A stretch of DNA of 43,359 bases, taken from a virus. Its lineage: Duplodnaviria; Heunggongvirae; Uroviricota; Caudoviricetes. Position 1 is the first letter of the stretch; the number at the start of each line of letters is the position of its first letter. The DNA is taken from IMG/VR virus record IMGVR_UViG_2541047745_000011, positions 1-43,359 of that record; one strand, given 5' to 3'. A program made the position numbers and the translations under genes. This document shows positions 1,295-43,359 of the stretch, one piece after another. The notes below the pieces were generated by a model. That model saw only the letters and a program-made list of their open reading frames with translations. It ran no database searches and had not been told where the DNA came from.

Positions 1295-3415
1295 TCATTT
1301 CACCACCCAACCAGAATTCCAGCGACCTGATTCTTTGATGTAGAGTCTTCCATTTACGATATCTCGATACTCGCTTCCAGGTGTGGCTATTTGTACTCCT
1401 TCAGGATTTCCAGTGCCAGCAATTATACTGTAACTAACGTCTGTGGCTAAATTCCTAACAATGTTAGCAGGAGGGTAAACGTTATCTGCAACAATAATAT
1501 TTGAGCAACTTGCTGTTACATCTACAAAAAACTCATTGCTTATCGAGTTGTGATAACAGTTGTTACTAATCACACCATTTTTAGCAGATGAATCAATACC
1601 TATAACTGCGTCTCCAGCTACAGATTCAAATGAATTTGATGTCACAGTGAATCCGTGGCATTCGCAGTTAATATGGACAGCTCTTCTTCCGTTCATTGCT
1701 GTATTACCTACAATTGATATGTTTCTACTTAACAAAGTTCCTTTGTATTCGCCATCATCCTCAAATATATAGAATATCGCCTTAGCCGTATCAACTTTAT
1801 TGTTGCTTGCAATCACATTAGCAATGTAATTCCCTCTAAGGAATATCCCATTACATGAATCGACTGTGTTTCCAGTGATGGAAACTCCGTCAACCCATCT
1901 CATATCAAGAATGGAGCCATCACAGGACTCAAAATTATTTCCTGATATCCTCCAGTCTCTGTGAAATATTCTACTACCTTCCAATCCGCTCTCAATAAAT
2001 GTTGGTGTAAGGCATGATATCACAGAATTTCCAGTGCAATTTTTAAATGTATTATGATGTATACACACATCTCTTGATGTTTCCCGAAGAGTTGTGCTTA
2101 CTTTCCTCCCGGTAAATATTATTGCTGGATTAGTGAAATTTATAAATGTGTTTGAACCAATGTCAACATTTTCCCACCTAGAAAAGCCACGAATGCCAGA
2201 ATAAGAATTACCATCAAAAGTACAATGGTGGATTTTTATATCAATAACTGGCTGCGCTCCATCTGTTGAACCGTGATTCCCTACGCCAACAGCCCATGAC
2301 GGTAGAGATTCTGACGGTCCAAAATAACAACCAGACACTTTAATGCTAGCGATATTATCATTGCTGGACAATGGTGTTTCAATCTGAATAGCATCTGAAA
2401 AACCTCTGTTACCTGCCCAATCCATAAACCCCATAAAACGGCAGTTTTCAATATTAACATTTCTCACGCGAGACAAGTCTATAGCATGCGCCCCTGAAAC
2501 ATTAAGGAATGTGCAATCCCGAAATATAATCCCATTAGTAAAAACAAATTCAAATATACTGGCTTGGTTTTTGTATATATTGCCATTGTTATTAAAAACA
2601 CCACCAAATACAGATATATTATTACCACATTCGACTTCAGATGTGTATATGCAAGCAAATGTATTTACACCTGTGTCTGAATTATCAAAAGCACGAATAA
2701 TAGTTGCACCTCGTAGATGTAAACTTGTGTTTGAGTATATCATTATTTTTTTTGTTATTTTTATAAGCCATTCACTACGAAAGGTTAAATTCAAACATCC
2801 GTTTATCTTTGCGATATTTAAAGCATTCTGTAAGGCATCGCTATCGTCGCTTACACCATCACCTGTAACCCCAAACCATGACGGTGAAACCTCATTCCCG
2901 TAAACCCTCTTCCACCTTCTACCGTTAAAACCTACAAGAATTGTTCCGTCATTATCTTCTGATGTCGTATCTGTTGGGTCAGCATAGAACACCCCATCAC
3001 CGCCATCGAACAAATTATTTCTTCCATAACAGATTATTTTGTCATTTGTGCCATTATATGAACGTATGTCTGTATAATTACCACCTCCTAAATACGATAC
3101 CCCGTCAATCTGATTTAGTTTCTGCTGAAACATGTCTGGATCATACTTCAGCACATTAGGAAAATAGAATTGCTGCGCTCCATACGCATCATATACAGCC
3201 ATAGAATGGCCTTGCACGGTTACGAATTTGGCAATCTGTCCGTTATATACCGGATATCCAGCAGCGTTAATGATGATTGGTTGCGAAACAGGGATGTGAG
3301 AACCGTCTTCGTTCTCCACATAAACCTGAATCTGGTTTTCAGGATTTACCGGGTCAGTGTCAATTTTACCGATATAAATTTTGCCATTAGCTACGGCTTT
3401 AAAAGAACGCGCCAT
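1295..3415 (-). CDS. Tailspike protein body (706 codons), P22/Sf6-type head-binding N-domain plus beta-helix receptor-binding domain; native first 18 codons separated by IS1
   Basis: N-terminus [40 protein letters not shown] matches residues ~19-60 of P22 gp9 / Sf6 tailspike; remainder is Asn/Ser/Thr-rich, beta-helix-like. Upstream of the ATG is the IS1 end, not a native RBS. Confidence 0.85.
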
Positions 3416-3432
3416 AGGGTAATGACTCCAAC

Positions 3433-3936
3433 TTATTGATAGTGTTTTATGTTCAGATAATGCCCGATGACTTTGTCATGCAGCTCCACCGATTTTGAGA
3501 ACGACAGCGACTTCCGTCCCAGCCGTGCCAGGTGCTGCCTCAGATTCAGGTTATGCCGCTCAATTCGCTGCGTATATCGCTTGCTGATTACGTGCAGCTT
3601 TCCCTTCAGGCGGGATTCATACAGCGGCCAGCCATCCGTCATCCATATCACCACGTCAAAGGGTGACAGCAGGCTCATAAGACGCCCCAGCGTCGCCATA
3701 GTGCGTTCACCGAATACGTGCGCAACAACCGTCTTCCGGAGCCTGTCATACGCGTAAAACAGCCAGCGCTGGCGCGATTTAGCCCCGACGTATCCCCACT
3801 GTTCGTCCATTTCCGCGCAGACGATGACGTCACTGCCCGGCTGTATGCGCGAGGTTACCGACTGCGGCCTGAGTTTTTTAAATGGCGGAAAATCGTGTTG
3901 AGGCCAACGCCCATAATGCGGGCGGTTGCCCGGCAT
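3433..3936 (-). CDS. insB: IS1 transposase InsB reading frame
   Basis: Translation [25 protein letters not shown]...[12 protein letters not shown] matches IS1 InsB. Confidence 0.9.
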
Positions 3937-4130
3937 CCAACGCCATTCATGGCCATATCAATGATTTTCTGGTGCGTACCGGGTTGAGAAGCGGTGTAAG
4001 TGAACTGCAGTTGCCATGTTTTACGGCAGTGAGAGCAGAGATAGCGCTGATGTCCGGCGGTGCTTTTGCCGTTACGCACCACCCCGTCAGTAGCTGAACA
4101 GGAGGGACAGCTGATAGAAACAGAAGCCAC
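3855..4130 (-). CDS. insA: IS1 InsA
   Basis: Translation [42 protein letters not shown]... matches IS1 InsA. Confidence 0.9.
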
Positions 4131-4185
4131 TGGAGCACCTCAAAAACATCATCATACACTAAATCAGTAAGTTGGCAGCATCACC

Positions 4186-4245
4186 CGCCATAGTGAAAAG
4201 TTGCGAAGGCATACTCACTACAACATTGGCTGTAATGTCTGTCAT
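4186..4245 (-). pseudogene. Tailspike 5' fragment (native codons 1-20) cut off by IS1
   Basis: Minus-strand translation from ATG at 4245: MTDITANVVVSMPSQLFTMA, then runs into IS1 and stops after 8 IS-encoded codons; matches P22 gp9 N-terminus MTDITANVVVSNPRPIFTE. In frame with the 1295-3415 body once IS1 and one duplication copy are removed. Confidence 0.85.
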
Positions 4246-4313
4246 TTAATTTGCTCCAGATACAAGGAATCGCCGCAGCATTGCCACAGTGATGCATTAT
4301 TAATCAAACAAAG

Positions 4314-4328
4314 AGACCACTGTGGTCT
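4314..4328. promoter_or_regulatory. Perfect 15-bp palindrome AGACCAC-T-GTGGTCT, candidate Mnt operator overlapping divergent promoters
   Basis: Symmetric site midway between the mnt start (4392, +) and the native tailspike start (4245, -); P22 Mnt binds a palindromic operator in the equivalent position. Confidence 0.4.
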
Positions 4329-4391
4329 TATTGAGGATGCAACCAGCAGATAATAAGATGCCGATCCACTCACAAAAGCGAGGCATCAAGA

Positions 4392-4643
4392 ATGGGAAGA
4401 GATGACCCGCAATTTAATCTGCGGCTACCTTACGAATTAAAGGAAAAACTAAAACAGCGAGCCAAATCCAATGGCCGCTCTCTTAATTCAGAATTAGTTC
4501 AGATAGTGACTGATGCTGTATCAAAGCCATCCAAAATTTCAGGCTATCGAGACGATGCGGAACGCATCGCTGATGAGCAGTCCGAACTTGTTAAGAAGAT
4601 GGTGTTTGATACGCTGAAGGATTTGTACAAAAAACCCACCTGA
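4392..4643 (+). CDS. mnt: Mnt repressor (ribbon-helix-helix, Arc/Mnt family)
   Basis: 83 aa, MGRDDPQFNLRLPYELKEKLKQRAKSNGRSLNSELVQIV...ELVKKMVFDTLKDLYKK closely matches P22 Mnt; GAGG RBS upstream. Confidence 0.9.
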   Translation: MGRDDPQFNLRLPYELKEKLKQRAKSNGRSLNSELVQIVTDAVSKPSKISGYRDDAERIADEQSELVKKMVFDTLKDLYKKPT

Positions 4644-4660
4644 TGGTGGGTTCCATTTAT
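4635..4660. terminator. Bidirectional rho-independent terminator between convergent mnt and lipoprotein genes
   Basis: CCCACC-tgat-GGTGGG hairpin with A-run on one side and T-rich tract on the other; overlaps the mnt stop codon. Confidence 0.5.
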
Positions 4661-5079
4661 TAGTCGTGCTTTGTTGACGGTATAAGGGATGCATTTGCCT
4701 CTTTAGGCTTCAAGGTATACATCCCACCATTAAATGGATCTACAGCAAGCCAACCAATTAACCCACCAAACACAAGGTTTCCACCAATATACCAACCATT
4801 AGCATTGGCTTTGATTGGCAGGGTAACTGGTTCGTACCCATCCTTCTCCATAGTGATCTGGTAGCTCTTTTTGCCAAAATAACTACCATCTGACTTGGCA
4901 AGAGTTACTCCTTGCGGGGTCTTACCTTGCGCAACAATCACGCCTGATTCGTCTTTTACCTTAAAGCTCGCACCGGAAGGATTGCTGTTCACTTGCACAA
5001 GCTGTGTTTCGTCACCAACAATAGTTGCGCACCCAGATAACAATATAGCGCCAGCAACGACGCCGATAATCCTCTTCAT
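4660..5079 (-). CDS. Lipoprotein of unknown function (accessory gene in sieA-equivalent locus)
   Basis: 139 aa; signal peptide with lipobox LLSGC; Gly-rich C-terminal region; sits where P22 carries sieA, between gene 16 and mnt. Confidence 0.6.
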   Translation of the reverse strand: MKRIIGVVAGAILLSGCATIVGDETQLVQVNSNPSGASFKVKDESGVIVAQGKTPQGVTLAKSDGSYFGKKSYQITMEKDGYEPVTLPIKANANGWYIGGNLVFGGLIGWLAVDPFNGGMYTLKPKEANASLIPSTKHD

Positions 5080-5213
5080 ATTACTTTCCGTTTTGTTAGA
5101 ATCAGAAAGATCTTAATAATAAAAAGTATTTTCGTGAAGATATTGTCGATTGAGTTAATAACTCATTTACACCCAACAGTGCCATGATGGCAAAGATAAG
5201 GAGAGTTAATCAT

Positions 5214-5699
5214 ATGAAAAAATCACTGTTAATTATCCCGCTTCTGCTGGCAGGGTGTGCAAAGGTTAGCGACTATCAGGCAAGTTGCGAACAACGCTAT
5301 CCAAAGCTTAGCGATATGGCTAATTGCCTTGATGCTAGCGTGAAGAGCGACTCACGCATGGCATCAGCACCAACACCTAAGTTATATGTCCTTGCTGCGA
5401 AGATGCTCGGGCAAGGTGTCGATGATGGCAAGATAAGTGACGCGCAGGCAAGACTTGAGCTTCAGAATCTTTATGTTCAATTACAAAGCCAAGAACAAGC
5501 CCAACAAATAGCACAAAGCCAAGCATTCCAGCAGGCTTTATTGAATTATCAGGCTGTAAACACAATGCAAGCTATCGAGCAAAAAGCGCGCCAGCCTGTT
5601 ATAACTCAACCTTACCCAACACGCGTTGACACTTACACAAACTGCAATTCAGGGTTTGGAAATACAGTCACATGCAACAGTAGCAGTAACATCAGATAA
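5214..5699 (+). CDS. Lipoprotein of unknown function, Gln-rich (divergent from 4660-5079)
   Basis: Start chosen at ATG 5214 (MKKSLLIIPLLLAGCAK, lipobox LAGC) with AAGGAGAG RBS at 5198-5205; track ORF begins at 5184. Confidence 0.6.
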   Translation: MKKSLLIIPLLLAGCAKVSDYQASCEQRYPKLSDMANCLDASVKSDSRMASAPTPKLYVLAAKMLGQGVDDGKISDAQARLELQNLYVQLQSQEQAQQIAQSQAFQQALLNYQAVNTMQAIEQKARQPVITQPYPTRVDTYTNCNSGFGNTVTCNSSSNIR

Positions 5700-5789
5700 C
5701 AATCAGCAAAGGTATCGCCTATGCAGAGGGATACGATAAACCTCGCGTTCTACATATTTGGTTTTTGCACGTTCCTGGTGTTTGAAAAG

Positions 5790-7787
5790 CTATTCTGACA
5801 ACGCATCAGACTTAGCCCCCTGAGTAAGGGCGTTAATGGCCTTTTGCGCCTGCTGCATGGCTTTCTCAAACGCTGTTGATCCGCGTGGGGTGTTTGCCAT
5901 TCGGAGCATTGCATTTCTGAATGGCTCGCTCTCATAGGCGCGAGTAAGAAGTCCGTAGCTTACTGCTGCGCCAGTTGTAGCCGGGTTCATTGCCGTCCCA
6001 TACCCAATTATGAACGGGATAGTTTGCTGCCCTGTGGGTGTTGTTACTGCCGCTTTTGCAGCCTGCTGCGTGGATTGCAGGTAGTTTTTTAATCCTTTCA
6101 GATAAGCAGCGTCCTGCCCCTTAAATGTGATGCCAGTCTGGTTTTGCAGGATGTTAAGCTGCCGAAGGAACTGGTCAGGGGATCCGCCAGATTTCTCCAT
6201 CGCCTTTCCAATGATGCCATTGCGCATTTGCGTCCTGCCAACACGACCAACTGAGTTATACAGAGTCTTAATTTCCGATTTGTTCTTGCTGAATAGCATG
6301 TTGTTGACAACTTCCGGCGTCAGGTCGCCTTTCATGAGAACATTCTTCAGCCTGGTATTCTTTAGTTTCGCCGCTTCGTCAGCGTAGACGGCATTGGCCT
6401 GCTGATATTTACGGAGAGTATCGTTGCCAAGATTCTGACCAATGGCACCATTGATATCGTCGGTCATTGCCTTGTAAACGCGCTGAATGGCAGCATCGGA
6501 ACGGTTTGGTAACACTGGTCGCTCACCTTTCACGTCCATTCTGAACTGGCTGCGCAGGTCGCTTAATTGCTTCAAATCCAGATTTACCGGACCATCAGGA
6601 CCAGCATTGCGAACAAGTTCATCACGATATGATTGAAGTTTTGAAATAGTCTCGTTATCAGCAACCTTACCAAGCTTCTGCAGGTTAGATATCTCAGTAT
6701 CAATCTGCTGAATTGCTCGCGCAGGCTGGATATTGACTCCCGCCATTGCATTCTGAACCTGCTCAAGACGGTTCCCTGCAGCACGACGAATTCCTGATGT
6801 TTTCGCTTTAAGGCTGTCAATAACAACAGCTGGATCATACTCCCCGAATTTATTGGCAAATCTCTGCACCAACTGGCTTCTCGCTTCCTGTTGCGTTGCT
6901 CTCATTCCGCTTGTGCCAGCCAGAGGGATATTTTCTGCTGTAGTCTGCGCCATTTTTCCGACGCGGGAAGTAGGTTGTAACAGGTCCGTGGTGTGCAGAG
7001 GAACTCCTTCACGCTCTGCAAATCTGATAGCCTGCTGCGCTTCTGGCGCAATAGCACCGCGAACGCCACGATAAGCAGCACCTAATCCACGTCCAGCAGC
7101 GTTAATAGCACCGCCAGCCAGCACACCAACGCCTAAATCGGTGGCGAGGGCTTCCGCATCATCTTTCGCACTATTTGCAGCAAGTGATCCAACTGCGTTT
7201 TCTGCGAGAAGTCGTGTTGCCCCCTGAGCAATTCGACCAGCAAGTGTTGGTGCCTGTGCCGCCGCTCTCTCAACGCCAGCAGGAGTGAGGTAAGGCAATG
7301 CTTCAGCAAATACCCTTCCCTCTGTCGTTTGTGGAGTCAGCGCGCCTTGCTGAAGGCCAAAGTCCTGCTCTAATCCCTGCGTTGTTACTCGTGGCGCTGG
7401 TTGATATGTACCATCGCCAATGCCGAGTTTACCGCCAGCCCAAGCCGCCGCGCTTGTTACAGCATCTGCAACTGATGCAGGTATGTTTGCCACGTTCACG
7501 CCAGCCTGCACCAGTCCGCGACCAGTCTCTTTCACTGCTTCACCAAGATCAGACATAAATCCACTTTGCTGTGGTTGTTGCTGTGCTACTGGTTGCTGTG
7601 TATCCACTGGCTGCACAGATGGCAATGGATAGGCAGCATAGAAAGCTTGCTTAGCCTGCTCTGCATTTTCTCCGGCTTGCGGGGCCACGACTTCATTGAA
7701 GTATTGCTCCTGAGCCTGCGCTTTTTGTTCTGGTGCTAACGCCTGATACTGTGGAGAGGCGATAACATCTTTCCATGCTTTAGCCAT
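5790..7787 (-). CDS. Ejection (injection) protein, P22 gp16-like
   Basis: 665 aa, Ala/Gln/Gly-rich; last gene of the ejection-protein block in P22 gene order 14-7-20-16. Confidence 0.7.
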   Translation of the reverse strand: MAKAWKDVIASPQYQALAPEQKAQAQEQYFNEVVAPQAGENAEQAKQAFYAAYPLPSVQPVDTQQPVAQQQPQQSGFMSDLGEAVKETGRGLVQAGVNVANIPASVADAVTSAAAWAGGKLGIGDGTYQPAPRVTTQGLEQDFGLQQGALTPQTTEGRVFAEALPYLTPAGVERAAAQAPTLAGRIAQGATRLLAENAVGSLAANSAKDDAEALATDLGVGVLAGGAINAAGRGLGAAYRGVRGAIAPEAQQAIRFAEREGVPLHTTDLLQPTSRVGKMAQTTAENIPLAGTSGMRATQQEARSQLVQRFANKFGEYDPAVVIDSLKAKTSGIRRAAGNRLEQVQNAMAGVNIQPARAIQQIDTEISNLQKLGKVADNETISKLQSYRDELVRNAGPDGPVNLDLKQLSDLRSQFRMDVKGERPVLPNRSDAAIQRVYKAMTDDINGAIGQNLGNDTLRKYQQANAVYADEAAKLKNTRLKNVLMKGDLTPEVVNNMLFSKNKSEIKTLYNSVGRVGRTQMRNGIIGKAMEKSGGSPDQFLRQLNILQNQTGITFKGQDAAYLKGLKNYLQSTQQAAKAAVTTPTGQQTIPFIIGYGTAMNPATTGAAVSYGLLTRAYESEPFRNAMLRMANTPRGSTAFEKAMQQAQKAINALTQGAKSDALSE

Positions 7788-42111: not shown

Positions 42112-43359
42112 TTATATTGCTGAAGGTACTGGCGTTTCCATCACTATTTGCTCACGTTTTTTACTCAGGAAGAAAATGCCAAATAGCAACATCAGGCAGA
42201 CAATACCCGAAATTGCGAAAAAAACCGTCTGGTAGCCTGCGTGGTCAAAGAGTATCCCAGTCGGCGTTGAAAGCAGCACAATCCCCAACGAACTGGCAAT
42301 TTGAAAACCAATCAGAAAGATCGTCGACGACAGGCGCTTATCAAAATTTGCCACGCTGTATTTGAAGACGGATATGACACAAAGTGGAACCTCAATGGCA
42401 TGTAACAGCTTCACTAATGAAATAATCCAGGGGTTAACGAATAGCGCGCAGGAAAGGATACGCAACGCCATAATCACAACACCGATAAGTAATGCATTTT
42501 TTGGCCCTACCCGATTCACAAAGAAAGGAATAATCGCCATGCACAGCGCTTCGAGTACCACCTGGAATGAGTTGAGATAACCATACAGGCGCGTTCCTAC
42601 ATCGTGGGATTCGAATAAACCTGCATAAAAGACAGGAAAGAGTTGTTGATCAAAAATGTTATAGAAAGACCACGTCCCCACAATAAATATGACGAAAACC
42701 CAGAAGTTTCGATCCTTGAAAACTGCGATAAAATCCTCTTTTTTTACCCCTCCCACATCCGCCGCTACGCACTGGTGTTCCTGCTCTTTAAAACGCATGT
42801 TGATCATCATAAATACAGCGCCAAATAGAGAGACCAACCAGAAGTTGATATGGGGACTGATACTAAAAAATATGCCAGCAAAGAATGCGCCAATAGCATA
42901 GCCAAAAGATCCCCAGGCGCGCGCTGTTCCATATTCGAAATGAAAATTTCGCGCCATTTTTTCGGTGAAGCTGTCAAGCAAACCGCATCCCGCCAGATAC
43001 CCCAGACCAAAAAAGAGCGCCCCCAGAATTAAACCTACAGAAAAATTGCTTTGCAGTAACGGTTCATAAACGTAAATCATAAACGGTCCGGTCAAGACCA
43101 AGATGAAACTCATACACCAGATGAGCGGTTTCTTCAGACCGAGTTTATCCTGAACGATGCCGTAGAACATCATAAATAGAATGCTGGTAAACTGGTTGAC
43201 CGAATAAAGTGTACCTAATTCCGTCCCTGTCAACCCTAGATGTCCTTTCAGCCAAATAGCGTATAATGACCACCACAGCGACCAGGAAATAAAAAAGAGA
43301 AATGAGTAACTGGATGCAAAACGATAGTACGCATTTCTGAATGGAATATTCAGTGCCAT
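42112..43359 (-). CDS. cscB: Sucrose:H+ symporter CscB (LacY-family MFS permease), host chromosomal gene
   Basis: 415 aa, MALNIPFRNAYYRFASSYSFLFFISWSLWWSLYAIWLKG..., 12 predicted TM helices; ATG at window end. Confidence 0.8.
   Translation of the reverse strand: MALNIPFRNAYYRFASSYSFLFFISWSLWWSLYAIWLKGHLGLTGTELGTLYSVNQFTSILFMMFYGIVQDKLGLKKPLIWCMSFILVLTGPFMIYVYEPLLQSNFSVGLILGALFFGLGYLAGCGLLDSFTEKMARNFHFEYGTARAWGSFGYAIGAFFAGIFFSISPHINFWLVSLFGAVFMMINMRFKEQEHQCVAADVGGVKKEDFIAVFKDRNFWVFVIFIVGTWSFYNIFDQQLFPVFYAGLFESHDVGTRLYGYLNSFQVVLEALCMAIIPFFVNRVGPKNALLIGVVIMALRILSCALFVNPWIISLVKLLHAIEVPLCVISVFKYSVANFDKRLSSTIFLIGFQIASSLGIVLLSTPTGILFDHAGYQTVFFAISGIVCLMLLFGIFFLSKKREQIVMETPVPSAI

Follow-up and report, generated by a model that had tools for sequence, protein, structure and literature searches.

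The 43,359-nt sequence of IMG/VR record IMGVR_UViG_2541047745_000011, referred to here in its full length as the window, is a P22-like (Lederbergvirus) prophage of Escherichia coli, and the subject of this analysis is a set of two lipoprotein genes, which we call lipoA and lipoB, within its "ant moron" (Table 1). The ant moron of P22-like phages is the region from gene 16 to the tailspike gene, described as changing rapidly (Villafane et al. 2008, PMC2629481). An initial annotation, made from the letters of the window alone, had described a pair of unrelated lipoprotein genes sitting back-to-back around an AT-rich divergent promoter region, between the last ejection-protein gene and mnt, with one of them antisense to the late operon. 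We find the coordinates and lipoboxes (LLSGC and LLAGC) as described, and the spacer has exactly the length that was claimed; only 0.5% of the window's 134-bp windows match its AT-richness, the GC content of the window being 47.3%. The divergent arrangement also stands, although the proper term for it is head-to-head. It is lipoB that runs antisense to the late operon, convergent with the gp16-type gene at a distance of 90 bp, and lipoA lies on the late strand. The same arrangement occurs in phages vB_EcoP-720R6 and Gally, where both products are annotated as hypothetical proteins, and in the E. coli lysogen Ecol_AZ159. What does not stand is the word "pair": we argue below that lipoA and lipoB are separate cassettes, and that one of them has taken the place of the P22 superinfection-exclusion gene sieA.

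Table 1. Features of the lipoA and lipoB locus, in window positions (aa, amino acids).
Feature	Position	Strand	Description and basis
mnt (Mnt repressor, 83 aa)	4392-4643	+	Convergent with lipoA; Pfam Arc 2.8e-22, Repressor_Mnt 2.2e-18
Hairpin terminator common to mnt and lipoA	4633-4652		Terminator scan; RNA fold -15.4 kcal/mol, z = -2.3
lipoA	4660-5079	-	139-aa lipoprotein precursor, lipobox LLSGC, Cys17; phrog_6823 (9.2e-86)
Candidate lipoB promoter	5075-5102	+	TTCATA(5075)-16-tgtTAGAAT(5097-5102), extended -10; consensus match
AT-rich divergent spacer	5080-5213		134 bp, 30.6% GC
Candidate lipoB promoter	5093-5120	+	TTGTTA(5093)-16-AATAAT(5115-5120); consensus match
Predicted lipoA promoter	5110-5138	-	-35 TTCACG (5138-5133), 17-nt spacer, -10 TAAGAT (5115-5110); consensus scan
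Degenerate PsieA leader remnant	5182-5213	+	Shine-Dalgarno AAGGAG 5198-5203; alignment with P22 sieA upstream DNA and other lipoB loci
lipoB	5214-5699	+	161-aa lipoprotein precursor, lipobox LLAGC, Cys15; phrog_6067 (7.8e-110); sieA slot
gp16-type ejection (DNA transfer) protein	5790-7787	-	phrog_770, 1.3e-238; last gene of the ejection-protein cluster

We regard lipoA and lipoB as true genes under strong purifying selection and not chance open reading frames (ORFs), because the ratio of nonsynonymous to synonymous substitution (dN/dS) is close to 0.04 in each (0.045 when lipoA is compared with its epsilon34 copy and 0.037 when lipoB is compared with that of VSe13) and both have many conserved homologs (728 for lipoA and at least 94 for lipoB). 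These values, together with residues that are invariant across genera, effectively refute the idea of decaying or non-functional ORFs stranded in a recombination-prone region, an idea that the rapid flux of the region (PMC2629481) and the defective state of the prophage, whose tailspike gene is split by IS1, might otherwise invite and that we regard as barely conceivable. We place the start of lipoB at ATG 5214 and not at the in-frame ATG 5184, since the former is preceded by a Shine-Dalgarno sequence and all homologs begin at MKK.

The N-termini of both products fit the lipoprotein signal that the initial annotation had proposed to look for, with a positive n-region and a hydrophobic core followed by [LVI..][ASG..][AGS]C, the lipobox falling within the first ~35 residues as in bacterial lipoproteins generally: lipoA reads MKRIIGVVAGAILLSGC|ATIV and lipoB reads MKKSLLIIPLLLAGC|AKVS. 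In a 33-sequence alignment of each family the lipobox Cys is invariant, and the Gly before it is kept in at least 90% of the 33 homologs. In E. coli, a lipoprotein without Asp at position +2 is sorted to the outer membrane; because position +2 is Ala in both proteins, both are predicted by this rule to be outer-membrane proteins.

Profile comparison with hhalign finds the two proteins alike in the signal peptide only, in agreement with the claim that they are unrelated. The mature part of lipoA is predicted to form a beta-sandwich (residues 24-93 and 121-131) interrupted by a conserved, hydrophobic, Gly-rich loop (94-120). That of lipoB is predicted to comprise a helical domain (18-100), in which Cys25 and Cys38 are conserved, together with a long Gln-rich helix, a Pro-rich linker and, at the C-terminus, the Cys144...Cys154 loop; it has no hydrophobic segment or transmembrane helix beyond the signal peptide. 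Both predicted folds are generic.

The distribution of the two genes shows that they travel separately. Among 5,426 complete E. coli genomes, 285 carry lipoA and/or lipoB and only 24 of these carry both; in the neighbourhoods of 80 IMG/VR loci around each gene, with neighbours classified by tblastn, the two are adjacent in 15 of the lipoB loci and 17 of the lipoA loci. Phage epsilon34 has lipoA without lipoB, and VSe13 has lipoB without lipoA. Given such rare co-occurrence and adjacency, lipoA and lipoB are two single-gene moron cassettes that happen to adjoin here, one combination of many, and not a functional pair. Their variable presence among syntenic phages is typical of morons, as are the promoter-like element and hairpin terminator that flank lipoA and the leader that precedes lipoB in its relatives. 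One could propose instead that the two work only together, co-regulated from the divergent promoter, which would account for their head-to-head order, for the overlap of their candidate promoters and for the recurrence of the identical pair in 720R6, Gally and 24 E. coli genomes. This would leave unexplained the 261 of 285 genomes, the 65 of 80 lipoB loci and the 63 of 80 lipoA loci in which one gene stands alone, the single carriers epsilon34 and VSe13, and the fact that hkcB, a 129-aa protein and a 109-aa protein are equally partners of lipoA. A two-component system is thus highly improbable, and an obligate gene pair is effectively excluded by the co-occurrence data.

The case of lipoA as an autonomous promoter-gene-terminator unit, common to podovirus and siphovirus prophages, is well supported, the promoter being a predicted one. 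This promoter ends 30 nt before the ATG, and TTCAC[AG]-17-TA[AG]GAT recurs at the same distance from the ATG in about 74 of the 80 lipoA loci, which fall into two upstream sequence types with no other relationship between the hexamers; the TAGGATGTTTCYGATT core is kept even in the more distant, siphovirus copies. At the other end, the hairpin shared with mnt presents on the minus strand a 9-bp GC-rich stem followed by UUUUUUG, which is predicted to terminate the lipoA transcript, and the epsilon34 annotation lists it as a rho-independent terminator. The gene, whose product in the window is 97% identical to epsilon34 gp15, is always on the late strand and convergent with mnt. Lambdoid siphovirus prophages carry homologs of 68-78% identity, each inserted as a single gene: in E. 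coli ED1a and Proteus the insert separates gpT from the tape-measure gene, and in Pseudescherichia it separates gpI from gpJ. Another homolog sits in a prophage remnant, and a chromosomal one that adjoins nif genes is longer, being 57% identical and extended at the C-terminus. The initial annotation had placed both lipoproteins where P22 carries its exclusion genes; for lipoA, on the late strand next to mnt and with homologs in siphovirus tail clusters, this placement is not supported.

We note a second envelope moron in the tail cluster of those lambdoid prophages whose lipoA homolog lies between gpT and the tape-measure gene: a porin gene (Porin_1/Porin_4) is inserted between gpM and gpL (10261-11424 in L004, L006 and L008, 10270-11343 in L007).

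The late-strand location raises the question of a lytic-cycle role, in which lipoproteins made late would spare the progeny wasteful adsorption or ejection on debris and vesicles, in the manner of T5 Llp, or would aid egress, immunity of the lysogen not being their purpose. Such a role would suit the constant position of lipoA in the late transcription path to the tailspike gene and its homologs within siphovirus tail clusters, and P22 sieA is itself up-regulated on induction (PMC10883804). It sits poorly with the conserved promoter and terminator that lipoA has of its own and with the antisense orientation of lipoB, and both lipoprotein ORFs have stayed intact in a prophage whose tailspike gene is split. 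On balance we consider it quite improbable. A spanin or lysis role was also considered and rejected, the similarity being confined to the signal peptide and the location wrong.

For lipoB, on the other hand, the positional claim of the initial annotation can be made much more precise. In P22 the order is mnt, orf59, sieA and then, convergent with sieA, gene 16. In all 80 lipoB loci, wherever the neighbour could be read, lipoB shares the strand of mnt and converges with gp16, from which it is 14-91 bp away; three gp16 types occur beside it, and its placement is alike in Serratia, Morganella and E. coli O104:H4 prophages. The upstream neighbour is mnt in 31 loci (at 93-94 bp), an orf59 homolog in 18 (at 416 bp), lipoA in 15 and a 104-aa exported protein in about 10, and a P22-type sieA is present in none of the 80. 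The positional criterion by which SieA proteins are recognised, namely that the gene lies between the gene 16 and gene 9 homologs of a P22-like prophage, describes lipoB as well. In locus L048, a stretch of 936 bp running from mnt to 12 nt before the lipoB ATG is 91% identical to the mnt-orf59-PsieA region of P22, where its counterpart ends 7 nt before sieA; the ORFs that follow differ wholly, and homology resumes in gene 16. By this alignment, the lipoB ORF stands in some prophages of this type exactly in place of the sieA ORF, preceded by the same DNA. The 85 bp of upstream DNA (putative PsieA) with sieA in a single chromosomal copy suffices for exclusion in P22, and only 22 of 66 P22-like phages have sieA (Leavitt et al. 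2024, PMC10883804), so that other genes fill the slot in the remainder. A terminator scan and RNA folding detected no terminator in the spacer between lipoB and gp16 in the window, and an Rfam scan of 4100-5900 found no RNA family.

A deletion variant, L063 (IMGVR_UViG_3300045988_051161, at ~6880-7000), has the start region of mnt fused to sequence matching the window from 5127 onward; the deletion removes mnt and lipoA and puts lipoB just downstream of the mnt promoter region.

The upstream DNA that lipoB shares with sieA is shared more widely still. A 27-nt leader, CATGGTATCCTGCnCAAAACTAAGGAG, corresponds to the PsieA region of P22 and holds an extended -10-like TGgTATCCT and a Shine-Dalgarno sequence. 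Across the fetched loci L029-L189 it is found upstream of at least seven unrelated ORFs in the slot after gp16, the counts being of loci and not of independent phages, with some contigs present in both sets: lipoB with its lipoprotein signal (55 loci), the 129-aa protein with a Sec-type signal peptide (21 loci), hkcB (107 aa, 13 loci) and the 109-aa protein (11 loci), each with a transmembrane anchor and a coiled coil, a 62-aa protein (4 loci) and a 75-aa protein (2 loci), each with two hydrophobic segments, and P22 SieA, a multi-pass membrane protein (1 locus). Examples are L048 (3310-3346), L114, L121, L136, L153, L160 and, for P22, L189 (4250-4287). All of these ORFs, read by eye, have N-terminal hydrophobic segments, and homology breaks at the Shine-Dalgarno sequence or start codon. 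The leader region looks like a promoter-equipped cassette-exchange site.

In most relatives the divergent spacer is 121 bp long and sets the lipoA promoter back-to-back with the PsieA leader. The 134-bp spacer of the window is a diverged allele of it, in which the lipoA hexamers are kept and a degenerate remnant of the leader precedes lipoB. The relatives, in which lipoB stands behind the PsieA region or directly downstream of mnt, argue for its expression in the lysogen, and expression from the copy in the window is plausible.

Taken together, we propose that the locus consists of two juxtaposed cassettes within the ant moron, each encoding a lipoprotein with Ala at +2 and each acting at the level of the envelope in the ways set out below, a reading that we hold to be about evenly balanced between right and wrong. 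In the case of lipoB, the occupant of a dedicated exchange slot directly after gp16, the protein should be made in the lysogen, because in relatives PsieA drives this slot or mnt lies directly upstream of it. From its anchor in the outer membrane the protein would extend a helical domain, a long helix and a disulfide loop at the C-terminus into the periplasm and there block the passage of superinfecting phage DNA through the envelope; a plausible means is interference with the gp7/gp20/gp16 conduit of P22-like phages. Such a protein would be a functional analogue of SieA and not a homologue. Because lipoB is a precise swap for the only characterised occupant of the slot, we judge such envelope-level superinfection exclusion to be its most likely role, while holding the proposal as a tentative one.

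As an autonomous promoter-ORF-terminator unit on the late strand, lipoA would owe its expression to its own promoter and also to late transcription reading through towards the tailspike gene. We suggest that its conserved hydrophobic Gly-rich loop may act from the periplasm to alter some component of the outer membrane, much as Cor or Llp does, with exclusion or the protection of progeny as the result; this analogy we offer with more doubt. For both proteins superinfection exclusion is a reasonable guess, and a better one for lipoB than for lipoA.

A broader reading can be built on the leader. The slot after gp16 would then be a dedicated, promoter-equipped exchange site, marked by the conserved PsieA extended -10 and leader and with recombination breakpoints at the Shine-Dalgarno sequence or start codon, that collects unrelated envelope-targeted anti-phage proteins, lipoB among them. 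Here lipoB would act from the outer membrane to block the ejection-protein conduit across the periplasm, complementing the inner-membrane block of SieA, and hkcB, the 129-, 109-, 75- and 62-aa proteins and the roaming lipoA would be further exclusion proteins. We think it unlikely that so general a reading is correct in full, while giving it appreciable weight.

Several results weigh against the roles that we propose. A scan of PADLOC-DB v2 with E up to 1 gave no family for either protein, and PHROGs classes both phrog_6823 and phrog_6067 as of unknown function. Homology to Cor, Llp and Bor, a comparison that the initial annotation had suggested, and to SieA was sought with PHROGs, Pfam/NCBIfam, PDB profiles and hhalign, and none was found beyond the signal peptide. 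Occupancy of the sieA slot is guilt by position and no evidence of the same activity. Uncharacterised chromosomal relatives exist outside phages in both families, and a general envelope role is possible. Finally, the canonical extended -10 TGgTATCCT is destroyed before lipoB in the window (TGaTGGCAA), and the scan for candidate lipoB promoter sites returned 4 where 3.1 are expected by chance, a weak result. Of the claim that lipoB has its own promoter and is expressed in the lysogen, the part that stands is therefore the PsieA or mnt context of its relatives, whereas in the window the extended -10 is mutated and the promoter is a consensus-level guess.

The main rival that emerges from these points is host-directed lysogenic conversion, in which one or both lipoproteins would change the envelope to the benefit of the host, through serum resistance like that given by lambda Bor, through adhesion or through stress tolerance. 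The chromosomal, non-prophage relatives of both families make it credible; lipoA moves among very different phage types with different receptors, and no known defence model is matched. Set against this, lipoB among the phages is confined to the P22-like sieA slot and shares the regulatory DNA of sieA, and neither protein resembles Bor/Iss or other conversion lipoproteins in Pfam or PHROGs. We consider conversion rather doubtful as the explanation of the locus, and a serious contender nonetheless.

Scans of lipoA and lipoB against Pfam and NCBIfam gave no informative family, the matches of lipoB to GspK (18 bits against a cut-off of 130) and of lipoA to LEPBI_I2678 being far below threshold; PDB sequence profiles gave nothing significant for either protein, and a Foldseek search of lipoB against BFVD had no match at E <= 0.001. 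Homology to characterised virion or housekeeping lipoproteins, which the initial annotation had named as grounds for abandoning its proposal, was not found, the chromosomal relatives in both families being uncharacterised. A scan of one genome per species recovered just 5 lipoB loci, and a word-indexed search with a profile of the remote lipoB relatives returned the close family again and nothing further. An exhaustive lipoB profile search gave 257 representative relatives, small unnamed lipoproteins that share the N-terminal helical domain and, at the C-terminus, the T-x-C-x3-G-x4-C loop. Some of these are encoded on chromosomes, one is carried by a small integrase/DUF3987 element, and the 257 as a whole offered no functional clue. 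Literature searches found no study of the lipoA or lipoB family.

Two observations on individual lipoB relatives deserve mention. In Pectobacterium peruviense (L195, 6438-7411) a DNA polymerase III theta-like gene adjoins the chromosomal lipoB relative, and similar theta-like genes edge the lipoB-bearing P22-like prophages of Morganella (L017, 1295-1597; L018, 1772-1996); the Pectobacterium relative may be a prophage remnant rather than a true chromosomal gene. The lipoB homolog of Cronobacter is misnamed "general secretion pathway protein GspK", for which the only basis that we found is the 18-bit match given above.

The surrounding prophage has features of its own. The tailspike gene is interrupted after its codon 20 by a 768-bp IS1 (3418-4185) that has an 8-bp target duplication, CGCCATAG; the insertion leaves minus-strand fragments at 4186-4245 and 1295-3417 and cuts off the N-terminal MTDITANVVVSMPSQLFTMA from the remaining ORF, so that the prophage is unable to make an intact tailspike. 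The listed ORF at 1295-3415 begins at a fortuitous ATG inside the target duplication. Between the tailspike start and the mnt start lie ~146 bp (4246-4391), as in phage 720R6, with no arc or ant genes, so that this prophage offers Mnt no antirepressor as a target. Mnt may have been kept for the control of read-through, or of lipoB where mnt precedes lipoB. Mnt is annotated in phages 720R6, Gally and epsilon34 too, and in phrog_795 and in the RefSeq records of epsilon34, ST160 and SE1 it is misnamed "partition protein ATPase". At its left end (1-1158) the window begins at the ATG of an IntS-type integrase converging on the tailspike gene, and at its right end (42112-43359) it closes at the ATG of a gene for an MFS permease, one similar to a sucrose/lactose-type symporter. 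These ends fit what we take to be a prophage integrated at the argW/csc region of the K-12 map, rather than a free phage genome.

If lipoB does block injection from the side of the outer membrane, it would provide a second handle on the assembly of the gp7/gp20/gp16 conduit; should neither gene exclude any phage, the locus would be one more pair of conversion genes. Only about one third of P22-like phages have sieA, lipoB and at least five other unrelated envelope proteins follow the same leader, and the occupants of the leader slot make up a short, directly testable list of candidate exclusion proteins, an assay for which exists in Leavitt et al. 2024 (insertion at galK in single copy, plating and K+ efflux).

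Of the known systems, SieA of P22 resembles lipoB in position, its gene being on the mnt strand with gene 16 as the immediate, convergent neighbour, in size (164 aa against 161 aa) and in being an envelope protein, and some lipoB prophages have the same mnt-orf59-PsieA DNA and leader. In contrast, hhalign gives lipoB against P22 SieA a probability of 0.2%, which speaks for no sequence relationship, and SieA crosses the inner membrane several times and bears a cytoplasmic FxRYPxEAxxFNK motif, whereas lipoB is a lipoprotein predicted to reside in the outer membrane. In this comparison with the P22 protein, lipoB shows none of the homology, the several transmembrane helices and the motif that define the SieA family (types A, B and C). 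Cor (of phi80, N15 and HK022) and T5 Llp are outer-membrane lipoproteins that inactivate the receptor FhuA. As small phage lipoproteins encoded by morons or accessory genes near tail genes they are a model for lipoA, and possibly for lipoB, acting from the periplasmic side of the outer membrane. The similarity that can be measured is confined to the signal peptide: the alignment with Cor phrog_1119 covers residues 1-20 (E 0.0034), Cor NCBIfam NF047972 reaches 11.7 bits against lipoA (cut-off 31) over residues 1-30 only, phrog_1119 matches lipoB at E 0.092 over residues 1-29 only, and T5 Llp (PDB 8A60 chain B) matches over residues 1-30 only at E 1.9. The mature domains of lipoA and lipoB are larger and have a different predicted fold. 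Bor/Iss of lambda is likewise an outer-membrane lipoprotein expressed from a prophage moron (Bor giving serum resistance), but it differs in size and fold and there is no Pfam or PHROG match.

Two systems come closer in mechanism. Ltp of the Streptococcus thermophilus phage TP-J34 is a lipoprotein that blocks DNA entry by engaging the injection machinery of the incoming phage, and gp15 of HK97 is an exclusion moron in a tail-gene cluster that blocks DNA injection. No homology to either was detected, and hosts and membrane topologies differ; they are nevertheless the nearest mechanistic models for lipoB and for the siphovirus context of lipoA. With respect to the ant moron itself, the region and its variability are already known and both genes are catalogued as hypothetical proteins, epsilon34 genes 14 and 15 having been described as of unknown function (Villafane et al. 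2008, PMC2629481). As far as our literature search shows, the lipoprotein nature of gp15, the lipoB family, the PsieA leader with its swapping of ORFs and the gp15 homologs in siphovirus tail clusters are new relative to that description. What the present analysis adds is an exact replacement of sieA and a conserved promoter-leader slot that collects unrelated envelope proteins.

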